Part shown: positions 35,250 to 44,985 of the stretch, piece after piece
Numbering within the stretch: position 1 is the stretch's first letter
Layout: each line of letters starts with the position of its first letter
Assembly (NCBI GenBank): GCA_050693035.1
Contig: JBOGWB010000067.1
Coordinates: 1-61,018, forward strand
Source: Actinomycetota bacterium
GTDB lineage: Bacteria > Actinomycetota > UBA4738 > CALAEC01
Length of the DNA: 61,018 nucleotides
Reading direction: 5' to 3'
The notes under the pieces: generated by a model
Database searches by the model: none
The model's input: the letters and a program-made list of their open reading frames with translations, nothing else
What the model was told of the DNA's origin: nothing
Made by a program: the position numbers and the translations under genes

Positions 35250-35576
35250 CTAGGTCAGGACGATCCACACCAGGACGCCGCCCGCGATGCCCGCCAGCGC
35301 GACCACGACCGCCAGGGCGATCCGGAGAGGCGACGCGGTCGCCATGCGCAGCGCGCCGCTCCCGGTCTGCTTGGCGCGGTCGAGCGCTCGCTCTGCCCAC
35401 GCCCACTCCGACGCCAGGATGGCCAGCCCGAGAAGGATGACCACGATGCCCGGGCCCGGGGTGACCATCATGACCAGCCCAGCGAAGAGGACCACGAACC
35501 CCACCACCGTGACGGCGATGCGCTTCCCGCTTCGGCCGATGTACCGGACGATGGAACGAAGGGGTTGGAGATCCAC
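35250..35576 (-). CDS. PGPGW-domain membrane protein
   Basis: MMVTPGPGIVVILLGLAILASEWAWA. GTG 35576 with TAGTCT 7 nt upstream. Confidence 0.85.
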   Translation of the reverse strand: MDLQPLRSIVRYIGRSGKRIAVTVVGFVVLFAGLVMMVTPGPGIVVILLGLAILASEWAWAERALDRAKQTGSGALRMATASPLRIALAVVVALAGIAGGVLVWIVLT

Positions 35577-35578
35577 GG

Positions 35579-35884
35579 TCAAGAGACTACTTGGCCGTCG
35601 CGTACGATGGCCGCCCCATCCACCATGAGTTCGTCGAGGATCCCCACGACGATGGCTCGGATGGGAGCCACCTCCCACCCCACCACCTGCCGCGCGGAGT
35701 TCCCCTCGTCGATGATCAGCACCGTTTCGCCGGCCCCGGCCCCCACCGTGTCCGCGGCGATGATGTAGCTGCCGTCCGGCTTGCCGGAGGAGTCCAGGAG
35801 GTCGCACACTAGGAGCTTCCGGCCTTCGAACACCGGCGCCTCGATGGTCGCCACGATCGTACCCACCACGCGTCCCACCTTCAC
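35579..35884 (-). CDS. BMC vertex (BMC-P, EutN/CcmL) protein
   Basis: MKVGRVVGTIVAT..ADTVGAGAGETV..GNSAR..IVGILD. Confidence 0.93.
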   Translation of the reverse strand: MKVGRVVGTIVATIEAPVFEGRKLLVCDLLDSSGKPDGSYIIAADTVGAGAGETVLIIDEGNSARQVVGWEVAPIRAIVVGILDELMVDGAAIVRDGQVVS

Positions 35885-36165
35885 GTGACGCCTCCCCCCG
35901 TCTCCTCCACCGCGTCCACGATCCCGACGATGGCGTGGTCCACCGGGACGAACGTCTCCCGGAGAGCCTGCGCAGCCTCCCGAGCTCCCACGAAGTAGAC
36001 CAGTTCGCCCGGCCCGGCCATGTACACACCGTCGGCCGCCACGACCGGGCTTCCCGTGGGTCGCTGCCGCCGGTCCAGGGGCTGGACGATGAGGAACTTC
36101 ACACCCTCCAGTCCGTCGGCCTTGACGCTCGCCACCACGGTCCCGATGACCCGTCCCAGCTGCAT
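35881..36165 (-). CDS. BMC vertex (BMC-P, EutN/CcmL) protein
   Basis: MQLGRVIGTVVASVK..AADGVYMAGPGELV..VDHAIVGIVD. Confidence 0.93.
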   Translation of the reverse strand: MQLGRVIGTVVASVKADGLEGVKFLIVQPLDRRQRPTGSPVVAADGVYMAGPGELVYFVGAREAAQALRETFVPVDHAIVGIVDAVEETGGGVT

Positions 36166-36761
36166 CAGCCGGCCTTCTCCACGCCTCTGGCCCGGAGGAG
36201 GAACCGGGGATCGGCCGCCAGGTTCTCGTCCATCCCCTCGTGCAGCCGGGCGATGACCACGTGGGCGACCTCCTGGCCCGACCCCTTGATCCGGTCCAAG
36301 CCGTACCCGATGGCCGCCTCGACCTCGGCCAACTCGCCGCCGAACAGCACGTAGCCCTTTCCGCCGAGCTCGTCGGCCAGGCCCAGGCCCCGGATCACCA
36401 CGTTGGCGCCCTTGACCCCGGCGTCGGCGGCGTGGATCACCGCCGCCACGGTGGTCGTCTCGATGACACCGAGGGCTTCGCCGCCCTCCTCCCCGCGAGC
36501 CCCGCCGATGGAGCGCACCACCGCCGGGTGCACGTCGGGCAGGAACACCACATCCACCAGCGACCCGTCCCCGACCTGGCGCCCGGCCTCGACCGCCTCC
36601 TGGACGTCGGCGGTGAGACCCCCCACGAGGACCAGGTACTTGCCCGGGTGCACGGTCCCCGCCCGGATCACCTCCAGCGGGGCTCTCTTGATCATGGCGT
36701 CGCCGGCCTCGATCCCCCTGGCGATCGAGTCGAACTCGAGGACGGCGATGGCCGGCTCCAT
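36165..36761 (-). CDS. Tandem-domain BMC shell protein (single-layer BMC-T, PduT-like)
   Basis: Two BMC repeats: IAVLEFDSIARGIEAGDAMIK..PGKYLVLVGG and LGVIETTTVAAVIHAADAGVK..GGKGYVLFGG. ATG 36761 with GAGGAGG. Confidence 0.9.
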   Translation of the reverse strand: MEPAIAVLEFDSIARGIEAGDAMIKRAPLEVIRAGTVHPGKYLVLVGGLTADVQEAVEAGRQVGDGSLVDVVFLPDVHPAVVRSIGGARGEEGGEALGVIETTTVAAVIHAADAGVKGANVVIRGLGLADELGGKGYVLFGGELAEVEAAIGYGLDRIKGSGQEVAHVVIARLHEGMDENLAADPRFLLRARGVEKAG

Positions 36762-36778
36762 GGGTTCCTCCTCCGCCC

Positions 36779-38242
36779 TTAGACGATGCGCAGAGCGCCG
36801 ACCACGGTGATCCGGCGTTCCCGGCAGAACGTCCGGGCCCGGGTGAGCCCGTCTCCGGTCGGACTGGCGATCGAGTAGGAGGTGAATCCCTCGCCTCCCT
36901 CCCCCAGCCCCGCGAGGTTCGACCCGTTGGCCACGAAGATGCTGCAGTTCATGGCCCGTCCCATCCGGGTGATGGCGTCGACGTTGGTGGAGTGGATCAC
37001 CGCGGTGTGCCGGAACCCGTGCTCGGACTTCACCGCGAGGTCGATGGCCTGATCCACGTGGGGCACCCGGGTCACCGGCATCACCGGCATCATCTGCTCG
37101 GTCCACACCAGGTTGTGCTCGTTGGGGACCTCGGCCACGGCCAGGCGAACGTCGTCCCCGATCCGGATCCCGATCTCGGCCAGGATCACCGAGGCGTTCT
37201 TGCCGATCCATCGCGGATCGATGACCCCCGGCTTGTTCGGCGGGCCCATCTCTCGAAAGATGACCCGCTCGAGGCGCCGCAGCTCGTGCTCCTTCAGCAC
37301 GTACGCACCCTGCTGGCCCATGGACCGGACCAGCCGGTCGGCCACGCTGTCCACGACGATGGTGGTCTTCTCGTCGGTGCACACCACGTTGTTGTCGAAG
37401 GACCCGCCGGCGATGACGTCCCGAGCCGCCCTGTCGATGTCCGCCGTCTCGTCGACGACCGCCGGTGGGTTTCCCGGTCCCGCCGTGATGGCCCGCTTGT
37501 CGGACTTCAGGGCTTGCTGAACCACCCCCGGGCCCCCGGTCACCAGGAGCAGTCGGACGTCGGGGTGATGCATGAGCTCCTTGGCGCTGTCGATGGTCGG
37601 CTCGGGGATGGCCGAGATGAGGTTCTCCGGCCCACCTGCGGCGACGACCGCCCGGTTGATCAGCCGGATGTTCTCCGCGGACACCCGTTTCGCGTTGGGG
37701 TGCACGTTGAACACCACGGCGTTGCCGGCGGAGATGATCGAGAGGGTGTTGTTGATGATCGTCGAGGTCGGGTTGGTGGTGGGGGTGATCGCAGCGACCA
37801 CGCCGAACGGCGCGAACTCGGTCACCATCATGCCCTTGTCCCCGGTGACCGCCTCGGACTCGAGGTCCTCGGGGCCGGGGGTCTTCGTGGTCACCAAGAC
37901 GTTCTTGCGGACCTTGTCGGCGGCTCGGCCCAGCCCCGTCTCGGCGCGGGCCATCTCCGCCAGCCGCTCGGCGTTCTCGAGCATGTCGGTGCGGATCTGC
38001 GCCACGATCCGTTTCCGGCCCTCCATACCGATCTGGCGGTACGCCTGGAAGGCGCGAGAGGCCGCCCCCACCGCCTCGTCGATGGTGGGAAAGATCCCCT
38101 CGCCCGGCGGTACCTCCGAGGAGGCCCTGGAGAGCTCCTCCTCGCCTCGCAGGGCGGCGCCGGGACGCTCCCCCGCCTGGCCCAATCGCCGGCGGACCCG
38201 CTCGATGATGCCCTGGATCTCTTCCTGAGTGAGCGTCTTCAT
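36779..38242 (-). CDS. CoA-acylating aldehyde dehydrogenase (EutE/PduP-like) with N-terminal encapsulation peptide
   Basis: TPTTNPT, TGGPGVV, AGPGNPP, SFDNNVVCTDEK (catalytic Cys), HGFRHTA; N-terminal helix TQEEIQGIIERVRRRL. Confidence 0.93.
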   Translation of the reverse strand: MKTLTQEEIQGIIERVRRRLGQAGERPGAALRGEEELSRASSEVPPGEGIFPTIDEAVGAASRAFQAYRQIGMEGRKRIVAQIRTDMLENAERLAEMARAETGLGRAADKVRKNVLVTTKTPGPEDLESEAVTGDKGMMVTEFAPFGVVAAITPTTNPTSTIINNTLSIISAGNAVVFNVHPNAKRVSAENIRLINRAVVAAGGPENLISAIPEPTIDSAKELMHHPDVRLLLVTGGPGVVQQALKSDKRAITAGPGNPPAVVDETADIDRAARDVIAGGSFDNNVVCTDEKTTIVVDSVADRLVRSMGQQGAYVLKEHELRRLERVIFREMGPPNKPGVIDPRWIGKNASVILAEIGIRIGDDVRLAVAEVPNEHNLVWTEQMMPVMPVTRVPHVDQAIDLAVKSEHGFRHTAVIHSTNVDAITRMGRAMNCSIFVANGSNLAGLGEGGEGFTSYSIASPTGDGLTRARTFCRERRITVVGALRIV

Positions 38243-38541
38243 GTGTCACTCCGATGCTTGTGGTAGCGGTCCTCGCCACCGACCTCCCAGGTGTCGACGA
38301 TGGCCATGATCACCGCGTCGCAGGGCCGGTCTCGGGTCATCTCGGTCTGGCGCGCGGAGCTGCCCTGGGCCACCAGGACGACCTCGTCCGGCCCGGCTCC
38401 CACCGCGTCGGCGGCCACCACGAACTGGCCGGTCTCCTTGCTGTCGACGTCGAGGGTCCGGATCACCAGGAACTTGAGTCCTTCCATCGAGGACTCCTTC
38501 TTGCTGGATACCAGCGTGCCGGCCACACGTCCGAGGAGCAC
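38239..38541 (-). CDS. BMC vertex (BMC-P, EutN/CcmL) protein
   Basis: MLLGRVAGTLVSSKK..ADAVGAGPDEVVLVAQGSSAR..DAVIMAIVD. Confidence 0.94.
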   Translation of the reverse strand: MLLGRVAGTLVSSKKESSMEGLKFLVIRTLDVDSKETGQFVVAADAVGAGPDEVVLVAQGSSARQTEMTRDRPCDAVIMAIVDTWEVGGEDRYHKHRSDT

Positions 38542-38564
38542 GTCCGCCTCCTTCCTTCCCCGAC

Positions 38565-38594
38565 CGGGGGGCGCCGCGATGACGGCGCCCCCCG
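38565..38594 (-). promoter_or_regulatory. Strong intercistronic hairpin after the BMC-H gene
   Basis: Perfect 12-bp stem CGGGGGGCGCCG-cgatga-CGGCGCCCCCCG between the BMC-H stop (38607) and the BMC-P start (38541). Confidence 0.65.
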
Positions 38595-38606
38595 CCGGGA
38601 TGGCTC

Positions 38607-38933
38607 CTACTGGCCCGCCGCCGTCTGGCCGGGACCCATCTCCCGCTCGGCCTGCTCCTTGCGCCCGAGTGGCAGGACCACGTCGATGTTGACGTGCGGA
38701 CGGGCGATCACGTGACTGGCGACCATCTCGCCGATCTTCTGGGCGTTCTGCTCGCCGGCCTGCACCGCCGCCTTCACCGCGGCGACGTCGCCGCGCACGA
38801 TGGCGGTCACGTAGCCGCCTCCGGTCTCCTCGAACGAGACCAGCTCGACCTTGGCCGCCTTCACCATCGCGTCAGCGGCCTCGACCATTGCCGGAAAGCT
38901 CCGGCACTCGATCATCCCAAGGGCCTCAGCCAT
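38607..38933 (-). CDS. BMC hexamer shell protein (BMC-H, PduA/EutM-like)
   Basis: ALGMIECRSFPAMVEAADAMVKAA..GGGYVTAIVRGDVAAVKAAV..HVIARPH. Confidence 0.96.
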   Translation of the reverse strand: MAEALGMIECRSFPAMVEAADAMVKAAKVELVSFEETGGGYVTAIVRGDVAAVKAAVQAGEQNAQKIGEMVASHVIARPHVNIDVVLPLGRKEQAEREMGPGQTAAGQ

Positions 38934-38946
38934 CGGATCCTCCTCC

Positions 38947-39579
38947 CTACCTGGTCGCTTCTCGACCTTCCAGTCCTTCGATGGCGGCCACGGCGGCCTG
39001 CCATCCCACATCGATGTCACGTTCCTCCCCACCGAGGTACACCCGGCCCATCGACCCGAAGGACCGAACCTCGAGGACGTTGATCTCCGCGGCCTTCTCG
39101 GCCTCGTTGGCCGCGAGCGCCGCGTACGCCGCCGGCTCGCACTCCAGGACGTACAGGGTGTCCCCTCGGAGCAGCATCTGGCCGTGGCGCTGCCGGTTGA
39201 TCAGCTGCGCGTGGTGGTCGTCGACGCGGCGGATGATCTGGCTCGACAGGATCCGCGGCTTGATGCGGTCCTCTTCCTTCAGGGAGATGGCGTCGAGGAT
39301 GGCCGACCCCGCCGCCCGCGCCTCCGCCTGCTCCGGCGAATGCACCTCGAGAAGGCCGAAGTACCGCTCGACGATCTGCATCCCCGGCTTCACCCCGGTG
39401 GCCTTGAGAGCCACATCGGTGAGCCGGTTGATCTCGATCCCTGGCGCCACCTCAACGTACAGCGATGCGTCCCCGGCGAGGGGCAGGAACCCCTGGGCCA
39501 CCGTCCCGAGGAACGCGGCGTACTGAGGCTGGAGGCTGTCCAGGAAGCAGTACCCGCGGAGCTCGATCCCGTTGCTCAC
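38947..39579 (-). CDS. Permuted double-stacking BMC-T (CcmP/CsoS1D-like)
   Basis: [49 protein letters not shown] motifs typical of the gated trimers. Confidence 0.9.
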
Positions 39580-39594: not shown

Positions 39595-40452
39595 TCAGTA
39601 GCGCGATCCACCCTTGCCCCCACTCACGATCTCGACCCCGGCCGACGCGCCGATCCGGGTGGCGCCCGCGGCCACCATCTCGCGGACGTCCTCGGCCGTA
39701 CGGATGCCCCCGGCCGCCTTCACCCCCATCTCCGGGCCCACCGTCTCTCGCATGAGCAACACGTCGTGAACCGTGGCCCCGCCCGGACCGTAGCCGGTGG
39801 ACGTCTTGACGAAGTCGGCCTTGGCCGCCTTGGCCAGGTGCGACGCGATGACCTTCTCCTCGTCGGTGAGCAGGGCCGCCTCGATGATGACCTTGAGCAC
39901 GACGCCGGCCTCGTGGCAGGCGTCGGCCACCATCTCGATGTCCCGGCGGACCAGTTCGTGGTCGCCGCTCTTCAGGGCCCCGATGTTGATGACCATGTCG
40001 ACCTCCCGGGCACCGTCGCGGATGGCCCGCCGAGCCTCGAGCGCCTTCACCTCGGATGTGGTGGCGCCGAACGGAAACCCGACCACCGACGCCACCCGCA
40101 CCGGCGTTCCTCGGAGGTTCTCGGCGGCCCGTTTCACCCACGCCGGGTTCACGCAGACGGCGGCGAAGCCGTACTGCGCGGCCTCGCCGCACAGCCGATC
40201 GAGGTCCGCCGCCGTGGCGTCGGGCTTGAGCAGCGTGTGGTCGATGTATCGCGCCAGGTCCTGGGGGACCTTCGCCCCGTCCCCCGTGTAGCTGATCCGG
40301 CCGGCGCCCGTGCCCACGAAGCCCCGGACCTTGTCCGAACAGTGCGCAGCGCAGGACCCCTCGCAGCCGACGCACCGGCCCTCCGGGGCGCCCGTCAGGG
40401 CGGCCAGAACCTCCTGAGTGACCACGTCGACCAGATCGTTGCGCTCGCTCAT
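39595..40452 (-). CDS. deoC: Deoxyribose-phosphate aldolase with N-terminal encapsulation helix and 4-Cys motif
   Basis: [29 protein letters not shown] (Schiff-base Lys), [12 protein letters not shown]; about 65-aa N-terminal extension. Confidence 0.95.
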
Positions 40453-41090
40453 CGCACTCCGTCCTTGAGGTATCGCCGCTCGATCTCACCGATCTTCCCA
40501 ACCCTCCGGGCGTGCCGGCCGCCCGACCAGGCTGTCTGGAGCCAGGCCTGGACGATCTGGAGAGCGAGGCTCTCACCGAGCAGCCCCGCCCCCAGCGCCA
40601 GGACGTTGGCGTGATTGTGCTCCCGAGCGTTCTTGGCGGAGGAGACGTCCCAGCACGTCGCGGCTCGGATCCCGGGGACCTTGTTCGCCGTGATCGCCGA
40701 CCCGATCCCGGCGCCGTCGACCACGATCCCCCACCGGCACTCGCCCCCGGCCACCAGCCGGGCCACGGTGTGCGCGTAGTCGGGGTAGTCCACCGAGTCG
40801 GTGGTCTCCGTCCCGCAATCGTGGACGGTGAACCCGTTCTCCCGGAGATGCGCTTCGAGCCGCTGTTTGAGGTGGAAACCGCCGTGGTCCCCGCCGATGG
40901 CGATGTCCGCCAGCACCGGGTTCGCCATGGGGGGCGGCACCACCGATCCCTCTTGCTCGTGGGGGACCGGCGTCCCTGCGAGGGCCGCCGTCTCGGTGCC
41001 GGTCCGCACCCCCGTGTCCACGGCGGCGACGACCGCCGACACGAGGTCGCGCACGTCCCGCTCCGAAGGAACGATCTCCGCCACCGTCAC
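40449..41090 (-). CDS. rpiB: RpiB/LacAB-family sugar-phosphate isomerase with N-terminal encapsulation helix
   Basis: [46 protein letters not shown] overlap with the GntR stop. Confidence 0.9.
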
Positions 41091-41869
41091 CGCCTCACGA
41101 TCTGGGCCGGCCGCCGCATCTCCACCCGGTACTCGTAGCGATCCCCGGCGAACAGCAGGCGGGTCCACTCCACCGCCCGGTCGTCGGGGGTGAACGCGAT
41201 CCGGTGGATAACCAGCAGCGGGCTTCCTGGCTCGTAGCCGAGCAGTCCTGCGTCGGGCTCCGCGGCCAGTCCCGGGTTGATGGTCTCCACCGCCCGGGCC
41301 AGGGAGAGGCGGAGTGGCTCGCCCTGCAGCAGCTCGTACAGGGAACCCTCCTCGATGCCCCCCGTTTCGAAGAGGTCGTCGCGCTCTCCCAGAAGCGCCT
41401 GGGGGAGCCACGTCTCCGCGAGGCCGACCGGATCGCCGTCGGCGAGGAACAGGCGCCGGAGGAACCTGCACGGCGCTCCCTCCTCGAGGCCCAGCCCTTC
41501 GGCCACCTCGGGCGGCGCCGGGGTCACCGAAGAGGCCAGCAGGCGGTGCGAGGGGGTGTAGCCCTGGCTCCGGAGCAGCTCGGAGAACGACGTGAGCACC
41601 GGGACGTGCTGGATCTTCGGGACGCCGACGAAGGTGCCCTTCCCCTGGATCCTCCGGATCACGCCGTCCGCGGCCAGGTCGTTCATGGCCTGCCGGATGG
41701 TCGATCGAGAAACCTCGTACCGCCGCTCCAGCTCGGCCTCGGTGGGAAGCCGATCCCCTGGGCCGAGGCCCCGGCGATGGATCTCACCCACGATGGCCTC
41801 CCTGAGCTGGAAGTACAGGGGAAGAGGAGCCGCCCGGTCGAGCTCCGTTGCTCCGGTCGACACGGTCAT
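41087..41869 (-). CDS. GntR (HutC subfamily, UTRA domain) regulator of the BMC operon
   Basis: PLYFQL..GDRLPTEAELERRYEVSRSTIRQA..QGKGTFV; UTRA SLYELL..FAGDRY. Confidence 0.94.
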   Translation of the reverse strand: MTVSTGATELDRAAPLPLYFQLREAIVGEIHRRGLGPGDRLPTEAELERRYEVSRSTIRQAMNDLAADGVIRRIQGKGTFVGVPKIQHVPVLTSFSELLRSQGYTPSHRLLASSVTPAPPEVAEGLGLEEGAPCRFLRRLFLADGDPVGLAETWLPQALLGERDDLFETGGIEEGSLYELLQGEPLRLSLARAVETINPGLAAEPDAGLLGYEPGSPLLVIHRIAFTPDDRAVEWTRLLFAGDRYEYRVEMRRPAQIVRR

Positions 41870-41887
41870 GTCCCGGTTCCGGCTCGG

Positions 41888-41910
41888 ATCATCATGATGA
41901 TAGGACGTCC
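41888..41910. promoter_or_regulatory. Adjacent palindromes overlapping the GntR-operon -10
   Basis: ATCATCATGATGAT (perfect 14-mer, 41888-41901) and GGACGTCC (41903-41910); minus-strand TATCAT at 41897-41902. Confidence 0.55.
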
Positions 41911-42000
41911 GGTCATCCGTGTGATTATCGGCCGCTCCACTCCAGGAATCAAGTACCTCTTGCCTCGATTCGGATAGGCTCCACCACCGTGAGGGGACCG

Positions 42001-42393
42001 ATGAGGAGATGGGCGCTCGCCTCCATGGTGCTGCCGCTGCTTCTCGCCGCCTGCGCCGGAGGTGGCCGCGAGGAAGCGACGCGACCGGCGCAGTCTCCGA
42101 CCACACCATCGCCACCGCCGCCGCCCGAGGAGGAGTGCCCCGCTCAGACCACCATCACGATGAACTCACGATCCTTTGATCCGACGTGTGTGGAGGTCGC
42201 CAAAGGAGACACCTTGACCCTCGAGAATCCCAGCGGCGCCTTGCACAGCTTCACCCTGGACAAGCCGAAGGTGGACCTCGACGTGGAGGCGGACGAATCG
42301 GGGACGTATGAGGTCGAGGGCCTGAAACTCAGGGATTACCGCTTCTACTGCAAGTACCACGCCGGGATGTTCGTGGACGTTCGGGTGACCTAG
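42001..42393 (+). CDS. Cupredoxin (type-1 copper) lipoprotein
   Basis: Lipobox LAAC, Pro linker, ligands HSFT and YCKYHAGM. Confidence 0.85.
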   Translation: MRRWALASMVLPLLLAACAGGGREEATRPAQSPTTPSPPPPPEEECPAQTTITMNSRSFDPTCVEVAKGDTLTLENPSGALHSFTLDKPKVDLDVEADESGTYEVEGLKLRDYRFYCKYHAGMFVDVRVT

Positions 42394-42401
42394 CGGAAGA
42401 T

Positions 42402-43295
42402 TCAGTACCCCAGACGGGCGAGGGCGCTGGGGTCGCGCTGCCACTCCCGCAGCACCTTGACCCGCAGATCGAGGAAGACCTTGCTTCCGAGGATCCGCTC
42501 CAGCTCATGGCGAGCCCGGGTGCCCACCGTCTTCAGCATCTCTCCCCCGCGCCCGACGACGATGCCTTTCTGCGACTCCCGCTCCACCAGCACCGAGCAG
42601 GAGATGCGCACCAGATCACGCTCCTCGTCGCGTTCCATCTCCTCCACCTGCACGGCCACCGAGTGCGGGATCTCCTCCCGGGTGAGCTGGAGGATCTTCT
42701 CCCGCACGATCTCGGCCACCCGGAACTCCACCGGCTGGTCCGTGACCTGCCCCGGCTCGTAGAGGGACTCTCCTGGCGGCATCAACGACGCGAGCACCTC
42801 GAGGAGCTCCTCGATGTTCTCCCTCGTCTTCGCCGACACCGGCACGACGTGGTCGAAGTCAGCGAGCGCCGCCGCCCGCTCGAGCTGCGCCAGAAGCTCG
42901 CCTTTCGACACGCGGTCGATCTTGTTCACGGCGCAGACCTTGGCGCACGGGAGCGGCGCCACCCGCTCGCGGGCGACGAACTCGTCGCCCCGACCGACCC
43001 CGCCCGCCGCGTCCACGACGAGCATCACCGAGTCCACGCCCTCGGTGCTCTCTTCCACCATCCGGTTGAGACGTTCTCCCAGCAGCGTCCGGGGCTTGTG
43101 GAAGCCCGGGGTGTCGGTGAAAACGATCTGGTAGCCCGACGTGCTGAACACGCCGCGAACGCGTCCCCTGGTGGTCTGGGGCTTGTCGGTGACGATCGAG
43201 ACCTTCTGACCTACAAGCGCGTTCACGAGGGTCGACTTGCCGGTGTTGGGTCGCCCCACCACCGCCACGAAGCCGGAGCGGAAGGGCGAGGTCAC
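42402..43295 (-). CDS. era: GTPase Era
   Basis: GRPNTGKSTL, PQTTR, DTPG, NKID, KH-domain REEIPHS..GIVVGRGG. Confidence 0.97.
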   Translation of the reverse strand: MTSPFRSGFVAVVGRPNTGKSTLVNALVGQKVSIVTDKPQTTRGRVRGVFSTSGYQIVFTDTPGFHKPRTLLGERLNRMVEESTEGVDSVMLVVDAAGGVGRGDEFVARERVAPLPCAKVCAVNKIDRVSKGELLAQLERAAALADFDHVVPVSAKTRENIEELLEVLASLMPPGESLYEPGQVTDQPVEFRVAEIVREKILQLTREEIPHSVAVQVEEMERDEERDLVRISCSVLVERESQKGIVVGRGGEMLKTVGTRARHELERILGSKVFLDLRVKVLREWQRDPSALARLGY

Positions 43296-43705
43296 CTCAA
43301 GTCTTCAGGACCGAACGCGTCGGGAAGGAGCTCCGCCAGCTCTCGCTCGTCGCGCATGCCGCCGGGGCCCTCCGAGATCACCACGAGGTCCTGGCCGAAC
43401 TCGTGGAGGACCTGGCGGCACCCCCCGCACGGCCAGGCCGGCCCGTCGGGGGACGACCCCACGACGGCCACCGCGACCAGCCGGCGCGCCCCTTCCGACG
43501 CCGCTCGCTGCACCGCGGACCTCTCCGCGCACACCGAGAGCGGGTACGCGGCGTTCTCCACGTTCGCCCCGGCGAAGATCTCCCCGTCGTCGGTGAGAAC
43601 CGCCGCTCCCACCAGGTACCGGCTGTACGGGGCGTAGGCGTGCTCGCGGGCCTCTCGAGCCGCCTCGAGCATCGCTTCGATCTTGCCGTCGTCGGGCCGG
43701 CTCAC
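43292..43705 (-). CDS. cdd: Cytidine deaminase
   Basis: AYAPYSRYLVGAA, NVENAAY, CAER, PCGGCRQ. GTGA coupling to the upstream gene. Confidence 0.95.
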   Translation of the reverse strand: MSRPDDGKIEAMLEAAREAREHAYAPYSRYLVGAAVLTDDGEIFAGANVENAAYPLSVCAERSAVQRAASEGARRLVAVAVVGSSPDGPAWPCGGCRQVLHEFGQDLVVISEGPGGMRDERELAELLPDAFGPEDLR

Positions 43706-44985
43706 GACTGCTCGCCCTCCGACGTGTTTCGCCTGACCGGCGCGAGCCGTTCCACGAGGACCTTGGAGATGCGCCGGCCCTGAACCCTCTCCGCGGTGAG
43801 CCGCAGGTCCTGGAAATCGACGTGTTCGCCCTGAGCGGGAAGGCGTCCGAGGATGCCCATCATCAATCCCCCCACAGTGTCCCACTCCTCGTTCGGCAGC
43901 TCCATGTCGAGGAGCTCGTTCAGCTCGTCGACCGGGAGACGGGCGTTCACCCGGTACCGCCCGTCGCCGGCCGGCTCGACCTGTGGCTCCTCGCGGTCGT
44001 ACTCGTCGACGATCTCCCCGACGATCTCCTCCAGGAGGTCCTCCAGGGTCACCAGGCCGGCCACGGCCCCGAATTCGTCGACCACGATGGCGACGTGGAA
44101 CTTCTCCCGCTGCATGTCTCTCAGGAGGTCGGACACCTTCTTCGATTCCGGAACGAAGTGAGGCTTCCTGATCAACTGTTCGAGCGCACGCGCACGCTCG
44201 CCGAGGGCGTGAATCTCCCGGAGGACGTCCTTGGCGTAGACGATCCCCACGATGTCGTCGCGTCTCTCCCGATGGACGGGGATCCGCGAGAACCCGTGGC
44301 GGACCACCGTGTCGAGCACCTCGTCGAGGGAGCTTCTGACGTCGAGAGCCACGATGTCGGGCTCCGGAGTCATCACTTCCCGGACCACCGTGTCGCCGAA
44401 CTCGAAGATCGAGTGGATGAGCTCCTTCTCTCCCTCCTCGATCTCCTTCTCCTCGGAGGCCACCTCTGCCATCGCCTTGATGTCCTCCTCGGTGGCGAAC
44501 GGTCCCTCTGGAAGGCCCCTGCCCGGCAGGATGATGTTGGCGATCCTGATGAGGCCGCGAGCCAGAGGGTCGAACACCGTCCCGAGGCCCACGATGAGCG
44601 GCGCGAGGCGGAGAGCCACCCCGTCCGTGTGCTGGATGACGTACGTCTTCGGGCTGACCTCGGCGAGAACGAAGAGCAGGACGGTCATCGCGAACGTGGC
44701 GACGAACTCGCCCCAGTTGCCGACGACCCGCACCGCCACCACGGTGGCGATGGCCATCCCTCCGAGGTGGCACAACAGCGTGAGGAGAAGGATCACGTTG
44801 AGGTACCTGGCGGGGTACTCGACGATCCGCACCAGGGATGCGGCCCCCCGCCGTCCTTCCTCCTCCAGCCGGTAGGCCCGAACCCGGTTCATCCGGGTGA
44901 TGGCCACCTCCGACGCGGCCATCACGCCGGCCAGCACGATCAGGACGATGACGGCCACGAGCCCGCTCCAGTCGGCCGCGGTCAC
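43702..44985 (-). CDS. CNNM-CBS-CorC (hemolysin-family) membrane protein
   Basis: ASEVA, AEVSPK, VREVMTP, GFSRIPV, VVDEFG..VTLEDLLEEIVGEI, CorC domain. Confidence 0.93.
   Translation of the reverse strand: MTAADWSGLVAVIVLIVLAGVMAASEVAITRMNRVRAYRLEEEGRRGAASLVRIVEYPARYLNVILLLTLLCHLGGMAIATVVAVRVVGNWGEFVATFAMTVLLFVLAEVSPKTYVIQHTDGVALRLAPLIVGLGTVFDPLARGLIRIANIILPGRGLPEGPFATEEDIKAMAEVASEEKEIEEGEKELIHSIFEFGDTVVREVMTPEPDIVALDVRSSLDEVLDTVVRHGFSRIPVHRERRDDIVGIVYAKDVLREIHALGERARALEQLIRKPHFVPESKKVSDLLRDMQREKFHVAIVVDEFGAVAGLVTLEDLLEEIVGEIVDEYDREEPQVEPAGDGRYRVNARLPVDELNELLDMELPNEEWDTVGGLMMGILGRLPAQGEHVDFQDLRLTAERVQGRRISKVLVERLAPVRRNTSEGEQS

Follow-up and report, generated by a model that had tools for sequence, protein, structure and literature searches.

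A DERA gene within an SPU6-type operon

The window analysed here, a 61,018-nucleotide stretch of an Actinomycetota contig, carries a co-oriented minus-strand operon that encodes a GntR regulator, RpiB, deoxyribose-5-phosphate aldolase (DERA, DeoC), BMC-T, BMC-H, BMC-P, AldDH, a second BMC-T and two further BMC-P proteins (Table 1). The GTG start of the RpiB gene overlaps the GntR stop codon, and the RpiB stop codon in turn overlaps the DERA start. Every BMC domain of the genome falls within this operon. The neighbourhood combines an RpiB-type RPI, AldDH, BMC-H, BMC-T, three BMC-P proteins and a GntR/UTRA regulator with no PduS, and by this gene content the operon around DERA is a typical SPU6 microcompartment architecture.

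Table 1. Features of the operon and of the DERA gene, in window coordinates
Feature	Position	Strand	Basis
GntR/UTRA regulator	41087-42115	-	Pfam scan
RpiB-family gene with its own N-terminal EP-like helix	40449-41090	-	PF02502, E=8e-54
DERA/DeoC gene (P0001), SPU6 microcompartment signature enzyme	39595-40452	-	PF01791, E=8e-23; AF2 core match; catalytic residues
Encapsulation-peptide-type helix, residues 2-19	40396-40449	-	AF2 helix, conservation
Linker of variable length, residues 20-26	40375-40395	-	pLDDT <60; length and sequence vary among relatives
Cys3 + (His37 or Cys38) knuckle, residues 27-38, probable metal site	40339-40374	-	Conservation, ligand table, tree test
Helix 39-47 and short strand, residues 39-60	40273-40338	-	AF2, hhalign
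Class I aldolase TIM barrel, residues 61-285	39598-40272	-	Pfam, conservation, AF2 match
Schiff-base Lys216 codon	39805-39807	-	Conservation
Shell and AldDH gene block	35579-39579	-	Pfam scans, translations
BMC-T	38947-39579	-	Pfam scan
BMC-H	about 38607-38924	-	Pfam scan
BMC-P	38239-38541	-	Pfam scan
AldDH, CoA-acylating type	36779-38242	-	Pfam scan
Tandem BMC-T without Cys	36165 to about 36761	-	Pfam scan, translation
BMC-P	35881-36165	-	Pfam scan
BMC-P, last of the operon	35579-35884	-	Pfam scan

The DERA gene encodes 285 amino acids plus a stop codon in the window translation, and a Pfam scan assigned it to DeoC through PF01791. Its ATG at 40452 is the earliest start codon downstream of the preceding in-frame stop, overlaps the RpiB stop codon (ATGA), is preceded by AAGGACGGAG, and encodes the same Met at which homologues begin. 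GC3 in the DERA frame is 0.90, which favours this frame and ruled out an opposite-strand ORF at the gene. In a full-length AF2 model (pLDDT 79.8) the barrel matches solved DERAs, with Foldseek aligning the core to 8qps at 64% identity over 203 columns (E=7e-26). Almost no variation occurs at the catalytic residues D152, K216 and K245, and the protein unites a PF01791 barrel with the catalytic Asp, Schiff-base Lys and second Lys of a class I aldolase.

The original prediction had described positions 40339-40452 as a DeoC N-terminal module made of an encapsulation helix and a C-x2-C-x3-C-x3-C motif, lying about 25 residues ahead of the aldolase core IDHTLLKP. This interval coincides exactly with DERA codons 1-38, from M1 to C38, and helix, cysteine motif and core are all present in the translated protein. 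The layout holds with the gene placed on the minus strand, and the gap between C38 and I70, where the core motif opens, is 31 residues rather than about 25. The PF01791 match and a helix predicted by AF2 at residues 2-19 support the reading as DeoC with a putative encapsulation-type helix.

Elsewhere in the same genome, on contig C50, lies a second DERA paralog (39% identity). Its N-terminus begins 11 residues ahead of the core and has no extension, showing that in this genome the N-terminal extension is specific to the microcompartment DERA paralog.

Several neighbouring features were also recorded. RpiB has an Asp (VVDGAGIG) at the position of the E. coli RpiB catalytic Cys, a replacement that has been reported for all SPU RPIs (PMC11585597). 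Directly upstream of the GntR gene are an Era GTPase and an ORF with a cytidine-deaminase domain (42402-44773, minus strand), and the placement of a nucleoside-catabolic gene beside a deoxyribose-phosphate organelle may or may not be significant. The last BMC-P gene is immediately followed by one for a small membrane protein of the PGPGW family (PF09656, E=9e-19), at 35250-35600 on the minus strand.

Architecture of the N-terminal extension

All SPU DERAs have been described as carrying an N-terminal extension of ~70 residues, consisting of a helix and two low-confidence strands and regarded as a putative encapsulation peptide (Dwyer, Sutter & Kerfeld 2024, PMC11585597). Full-length AF2 modelling of the window DERA gave low to moderate confidence in this region. 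The N-terminus was also modelled by itself with AF2, using residues 1-79 and a 110-sequence alignment (mean pLDDT 78.4). This model places the first helix at residues 2-19 with pLDDT 85-93, drops to a pLDDT of ~59 across residues 21-30, which include C27 and C30, and recovers to 84 over residues 31-50, where a short helix at 34-37 is followed by a second helix at 39-47. A strand at 53-55 completes the AF2 secondary structure of the extension. Between the first helix and the helix-strand unit lies the cysteine cluster, which reads C27-VG-C30-EGS-C34-AAH-C38, or C27-x2-C30-x3-C34-x3-C38; since the short helix spans 34-37, C34 and C38 would sit at a helix start.

Encapsulation peptides commonly follow a pattern of paired hydrophobics, hh-xx-hh-xx-hh-xx-h. 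The family consensus of helix 2-19, LIEAVTREVLAAL, fits this pattern, and T12, E14, V15 and L19 of the helix are nearly invariant. The hydrophobic moment of window residues 7-19 is a modest 0.33, a value reached by 13% of shuffles, and that of the family-consensus helix is 0.49, reached by 5% of shuffles.

The second half of the extension resembles part of the aldolase itself. Residues 39-60 align to the last helix and beta-8 of the barrel, residues 252-273 (40273-40338 versus 39634-39699, both on the minus strand), and hhalign of the N-terminal against the C-terminal profile returned a probability of 88% with E=2.8e-6 over 22 columns. The same self-match appeared when the N-terminal profile was searched against the PDB with hmmsearch, where the results comprised DERA N-termini, this beta-8 self-similarity and otherwise noise. 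The resemblance suggests that the extension may have arisen partly via duplication of the C-terminal alpha/beta unit of the barrel.

Other comparisons of the N-terminus gave no relatives. A Pfam scan of the 68-residue N-terminus matched no family at E<=1, the N-terminus-only model matched solved folds only at noise level (best VIA Z=2.6, Foldseek E about 8), and an ESM Atlas feature search with residues 1-66 found no usable match.

Conservation of the cysteine cluster

In a six-frame search of the 2.15-Mb genome, C-x2-C-x3-C-x3-C occurred in only three long high-GC3 ORFs, one of which encodes a NuoI-like ferredoxin. Because the motif is rare among the ORFs of the genome and is conserved among hundreds of relatives, a chance origin was ruled out.

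Among database relatives, the 120 closest (73-93% identity) nearly all show the form C-x(2 or 4)-C-x-G-[SA]-C-A-A-H-C. A search of species genomes with an N-terminal profile found 80 loci, all of which share RpiB-DERA-BMC-T-(BMC-H)-BMC-P-AldDH synteny, in Actinomycetota, Chloroflexota, Acidimicrobiia, Acidobacteriota, Gemmatimonadales, Verrucomicrobiota and other taxa, with the Cys motif present in 9/9 Chloroflexota loci of the set. When searched against 1.84 billion cluster representatives, the profile matched only 79 clusters, nearly all of them DERA N-termini.

From clades further away, a scan of metagenomes contributed another 75 unique DERAs with the extension. At least four Cys were found in 60/75, with spacings of 2-3-3, 3-4-3, 1-3-3, 1-4-3 or 5-2-2, and the sequences with fewer had three Cys (2/75), two Cys as C-x3-C or C-x12-C (11/75) or a single Cys (2/75). 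The first pair is often CPxC in distant relatives, a few of which have C-x2-C-x2-C, and some relatives contain 5-6 Cys. All 110 sequences of a set picked for possessing the cluster have C30, while C27 and C34 are each present in at least 90% of them, and conservation of C27/C30/C34 at this level (>=90%) extends to ~35% identity in the extension. Gly32 is nearly invariant in the window DERA and its SPU6-clade relatives. One unpublished genome, G030/G133, is excluded from the alignments, and none of the claims depends on it. The cysteines of microcompartment-linked DeoC, whose conservation the original prediction had named as a point to check, are conserved in close homologues and, with varied spacing, in most of the distant ones.

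Two other hits, P0138 (1879 residues) and P0176, were rejected as spurious relatives, being repetitive and containing neither DeoC nor a clearly related Pfam family; the N-terminal profile aligned to 25 stretches of P0138 (profile positions 31-54), which is probably a compositional artefact. Further arrangements were noted. P0178, a 474-residue protein from a Logan assembly, has an EP-like helix, a weakly matching PF02441 flavoprotein-like domain (25 bits), C-x6-C-x2-C-x2-C-x2-H and then the barrel. Four DERA ORFs of 380-396 residues (L178, L180, L181, L182) have a region of ~150 residues before the EP-like helix and a C-x-C-x3-C-x3-C cluster, where the added region could be a fused domain or a mere upstream open frame.

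Compensation at the fourth ligand position

The His in the motif of the closest relatives lies next to C38, and residues 37 and 38 were tabulated over 225 unique linker segments from the SPU6 clade and representatives, about 198 of which have the cluster. Both H37 and C38 occur in 129 unique segments, H37 only in 42 and C38 only in 25. None has neither residue, as two apparent cases were a one-residue register shift and a frameshifted fragment. A tree of the SPU6 clade alone requires at least 12 changes of C38 and at least 3 of His. With His present in almost every member of this clade, the raw H37/C38 contingency table is uninformative when counted per event there, and a rate comparison on a wider tree was used in its place.

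The wider tree was built with FastTree from barrel columns only, using 269 full-length rows from the SPU6 and metagenome sets (leaving out fragments and rows without a full barrel), and was midpoint rooted with states assigned by Fitch parsimony. Branch time with C38 present was nearly the same on the two backgrounds, 11.1 substitutions per site with His versus 11.2 without, and C38 was lost 12 times with His versus 2 times without (binomial p=0.006, an approximate value given FastTree, the midpoint root, parsimony and related sequences). In both losses on the His-less background a replacement ligand is present, the patterns being C-x5-C-x2-C-x2-C in L168 and C-x2-C-x2-H-x3-C in L166.

These patterns argue that four putative Cys/His ligands are maintained via compensation, with either C38 or the adjacent H37 as the predicted fourth. 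Four Cys/His residues arranged in two close pairs and kept in this way resemble the ligand set of a zinc knuckle, and ligand compensation fits a tetra-coordinate metal site and argues against disulfide pairs. The earlier proposal of a four-Cys metal site gains from both conservation and compensation, with the amendment that the conserved set is three Cys plus a Cys or His, not strictly four Cys.

Co-occurrence with shell genes and loss of the site in some clades

In the genomes compared, the extension tracks with microcompartment shell genes. Within the phylum of G042 it is present in 32/351 genomes, and BMC shell genes were found in 16/16 genomes tested with the extension versus 10/20 without a match (Fisher p=7.6e-4, subject to the non-independence of related genomes and to possible misses of divergent forms by the query). 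In several of the 16 genomes the shell genes are >100 kb away or on other contigs. This co-occurrence provides indirect backing for the packaging of the predicted DERA cargo within a shell.

Two loci place DERAs with the extension and Cys cluster among unrelated genes, one together with RpiB (L101:9338-10906) and one alone (L117:9992-10891), and neither has shell genes within 10 kb. Since DERAs of this kind in species genomes are accompanied by shell genes at other places in the genome, both look like satellite loci.

The cysteine cluster itself has been lost or has degenerated in several lineages. One SPU6 clade, with members in Acidimicrobiia, Acidobacteriota and Gemmatimonadales, has deleted the 12-residue knuckle (e.g. 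...RYDVCDTGEKVR...) and retains the complete operon as well as the helix and the helix-strand unit that flank the deletion. Other clades have two Cys and a His, or two Cys only. The deletion or degeneration of the knuckle despite the same operon indicates that the putative Cys/His site is dispensable, and would make it accessory both to catalysis and to the organelle as such. The metal site first proposed from the window is in this respect a conserved feature that several lineages with the same operon have nonetheless lost or let degenerate.

A candidate metal site and its alternatives

The four-ligand Cys/His cluster is probably a small metal site. We infer metal binding, zinc over Fe-S, and a structural or assembly role from the sequence patterns, and give roughly even credence to the specific proposal of a structural Zn-type knuckle that fixes the targeting helix and adaptor for cargo assembly. 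In this proposal the window DERA would be the deoxyribose-5-phosphate aldolase cargo of an SPU6-type microcompartment, and its 60-residue extension would have three parts: an encapsulation-type helix on a flexible linker; C27, C30, C34 and H37 or C38, which would bind one metal ion tetrahedrally, our best guess being Zn(II) in a structural capacity; and the helix-strand unit resembling the last helix and beta-8 of the barrel. The metal would staple a segment too small to fold alone, and stapling could hold the targeting helix and adaptor in a defined position against the barrel, for contacts between cargo proteins or between cargo and shell. Consistent with a mononuclear Zn-type site are the CPxC and C-x2-C-x-G forms, the Cys/His interchange, the patchy loss and the redox-neutral enzyme. 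CPxC is the classic mononuclear knuckle form, and patchy loss is typical of structural Zn sites such as those of the adenylate-kinase lid and the C+/C- ribosomal proteins.

An Fe-S cluster, [4Fe-4S] or [2Fe-2S] and possibly bridging two DERA chains, would instead make the extension an oxygen or redox sensor for assembly or an electron relay, which we consider possible but doubtful. The Cys triads C-x2-C-x3-C, C-x3-C-x2-C and C-x2-C-x2-C, all of which occur in the family, frequently followed by C-P, are also established [4Fe-4S] triads. There are variants with 5-6 Cys, P0178 has its flavoprotein-like domain directly before the cluster, and the two-Cys clades with C-x3-C could still form a four-Cys site across a DERA dimer. 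Two published observations would also suit a cluster: NAD+ recycling is unexplained in SPU6 loci, which are without PduS, and full-length SPU6 DERA from E. coli, produced aerobically, is insoluble, as a missing oxygen-labile cluster could explain (PMC11585597). Against this, the spacing in the window DERA, C-x2-C-x3-C-x3-C-S, differs from the ferredoxin-type CxxCxxCxxxCP, and neither Fer4 (E<=1) nor any other Fe-S Pfam family matches the N-terminus. Redox partners were also looked for. PduS is absent from the 89%-complete genome, whose two Complex1_51K proteins are NuoF-like; the translated tandem BMC-T contains no cysteine at all and therefore cannot hold a PduT-like pore Fe-S cluster; and no CxxCxxCxxxCP ORF was found in any related locus, up to 10 kb around. 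This lack of an Fe-S partner favours a Zn-type knuckle over an Fe-S cluster, as do the redox-neutral aldolase reaction, the frequent CPxC first pair and the deletion of the whole cluster in a clade with an otherwise identical operon. Electron transfer inside the shell, one of the roles suggested at the outset, is the least supported of those roles given the absent PduS, the Cys-less tandem BMC-T and the redox-neutral chemistry. An Fe-S cluster at the knuckle, perhaps shared by two DERA chains, that makes loading or aggregation dependent on redox state or O2, or that serves as an internal electron acceptor, is in our judgement unlikely.

The cysteines could also act without metal. Redox-dependent cargo condensation is known for the beta-carboxysome protein CcmM, and a thiol/disulfide switch similar to its SSUL modules could tune cargo condensation to the redox state of the lumen, with the close pairs C27/C30 and C34/C38 each able to form a disulfide. 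However, 42 of ~196 unique cluster-bearing sequences have three Cys and a conserved His, which is no substitute in a disulfide, so that disulfide pairs cannot explain these sequences. The dependence of C38 loss on the presence of His37 and the knuckle features of conserved Gly and CPxC point the same way, and make such a switch improbable. We assign a similarly small likelihood to cysteines that are functionless and kept for packing or by descent, with the extension acting via its helix and helix-strand unit. That helix, helix-strand unit and operon all persist in several clades with a deleted cluster or 0-2 Cys would agree with such a reading, as would the report that extension-less DERA is active and still binds RPI (PMC11585597). 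It accounts poorly for the persistence of C27, C30 and C34 in divergent extensions, for the replacement ligands that arise upon loss of one, and for the rarity of four Cys within 12 residues in this genome.

Relation to described systems and implications

The closest described relative of this system is the SPU6 DERA of Chloroflexi bacterium GWB2_54_36 (PMC11585597), which shares the family, the extension and an operon with GntR/UTRA, an RPI with Asp, DERA, AldDH, one BMC-H, BMC-T and three BMC-P. The extension is absent from DERAs outside microcompartments. In that account the whole extension is the putative encapsulation peptide, and the Cys3+(Cys/His) knuckle is not described. SPU3 RPI-DERA fusions are also known (PMC11585597), and two fusions in our set (P0191, P0202) keep the same helix, Cys cluster and helix-strand unit in the linker between RpiB and DeoC. 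These fusions differ from the unfused window DERA in having an internal helix and C-x3-C-x2-C-x2-C or C-x4-C-x2-C-x2-C.

The main text of Dwyer 2024 (PMC11585597) uses the word cysteine only in connection with RPI, Sutter 2021 contains 0 matches to cysteine, Fe-S or iron-sulfur, and the SPU and DeoC passages of Axen 2014 make no mention of the motif. Literature searches that paired microcompartments and DeoC or aldolase with cysteine or iron-sulfur returned nothing further of relevance. The extension is already published, and the Cys knuckle and beta-8-like repeat are undescribed in the main text of Dwyer 2024, in Sutter 2021 and in these passages of Axen 2014. The published SPU6 sequence logo must show the motif, which goes undiscussed.

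Lineage-variable structural zinc sites with Cys4 or Cys3His ligands are found in the adenylate-kinase lid and in retroviral CCHC knuckles. The DERA cluster is like these in having four close ligands, a knuckle pair followed by ligands at a helix start, Cys/His interchange and loss without loss of enzyme function. It is unlike them in that it matches no such family in sequence or fold, its 2-3-3 spacing is more compact than the 2-4-4 of the retroviral knuckles, and zinc is here a prediction. Fe-S components of other microcompartments include PduS, the pore cluster of PduT and a putative C-terminal motif of PduK. These are also Cys clusters on microcompartment proteins, but they lie on an electron-carrying flavoprotein or on shell proteins, whereas the cluster described here is on a redox-neutral aldolase in a locus that has no PduS and a BMC-T without Cys.

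The window DERA is an ordinary member of its family, and the interest lies in a family-wide feature that goes undiscussed in the SPU papers cited here. Few bacterial microcompartments are as widespread as the SPU organelles, and the only biochemical study used a truncated DERA with the extension removed, the full-length SPU6 enzyme being insoluble in E. coli (PMC11585597). If the metal site is real, the right metal or anaerobic purification may yield soluble full-length cargo. An Fe-S cluster, if that were its nature, would make this the first signature aldolase of a microcompartment with a metallocluster. With a metal site, the extension would be an adaptor with a defined structure instead of a loose tag, which would bear on SPU assembly and on the targeting of cargo to engineered SPU shells.
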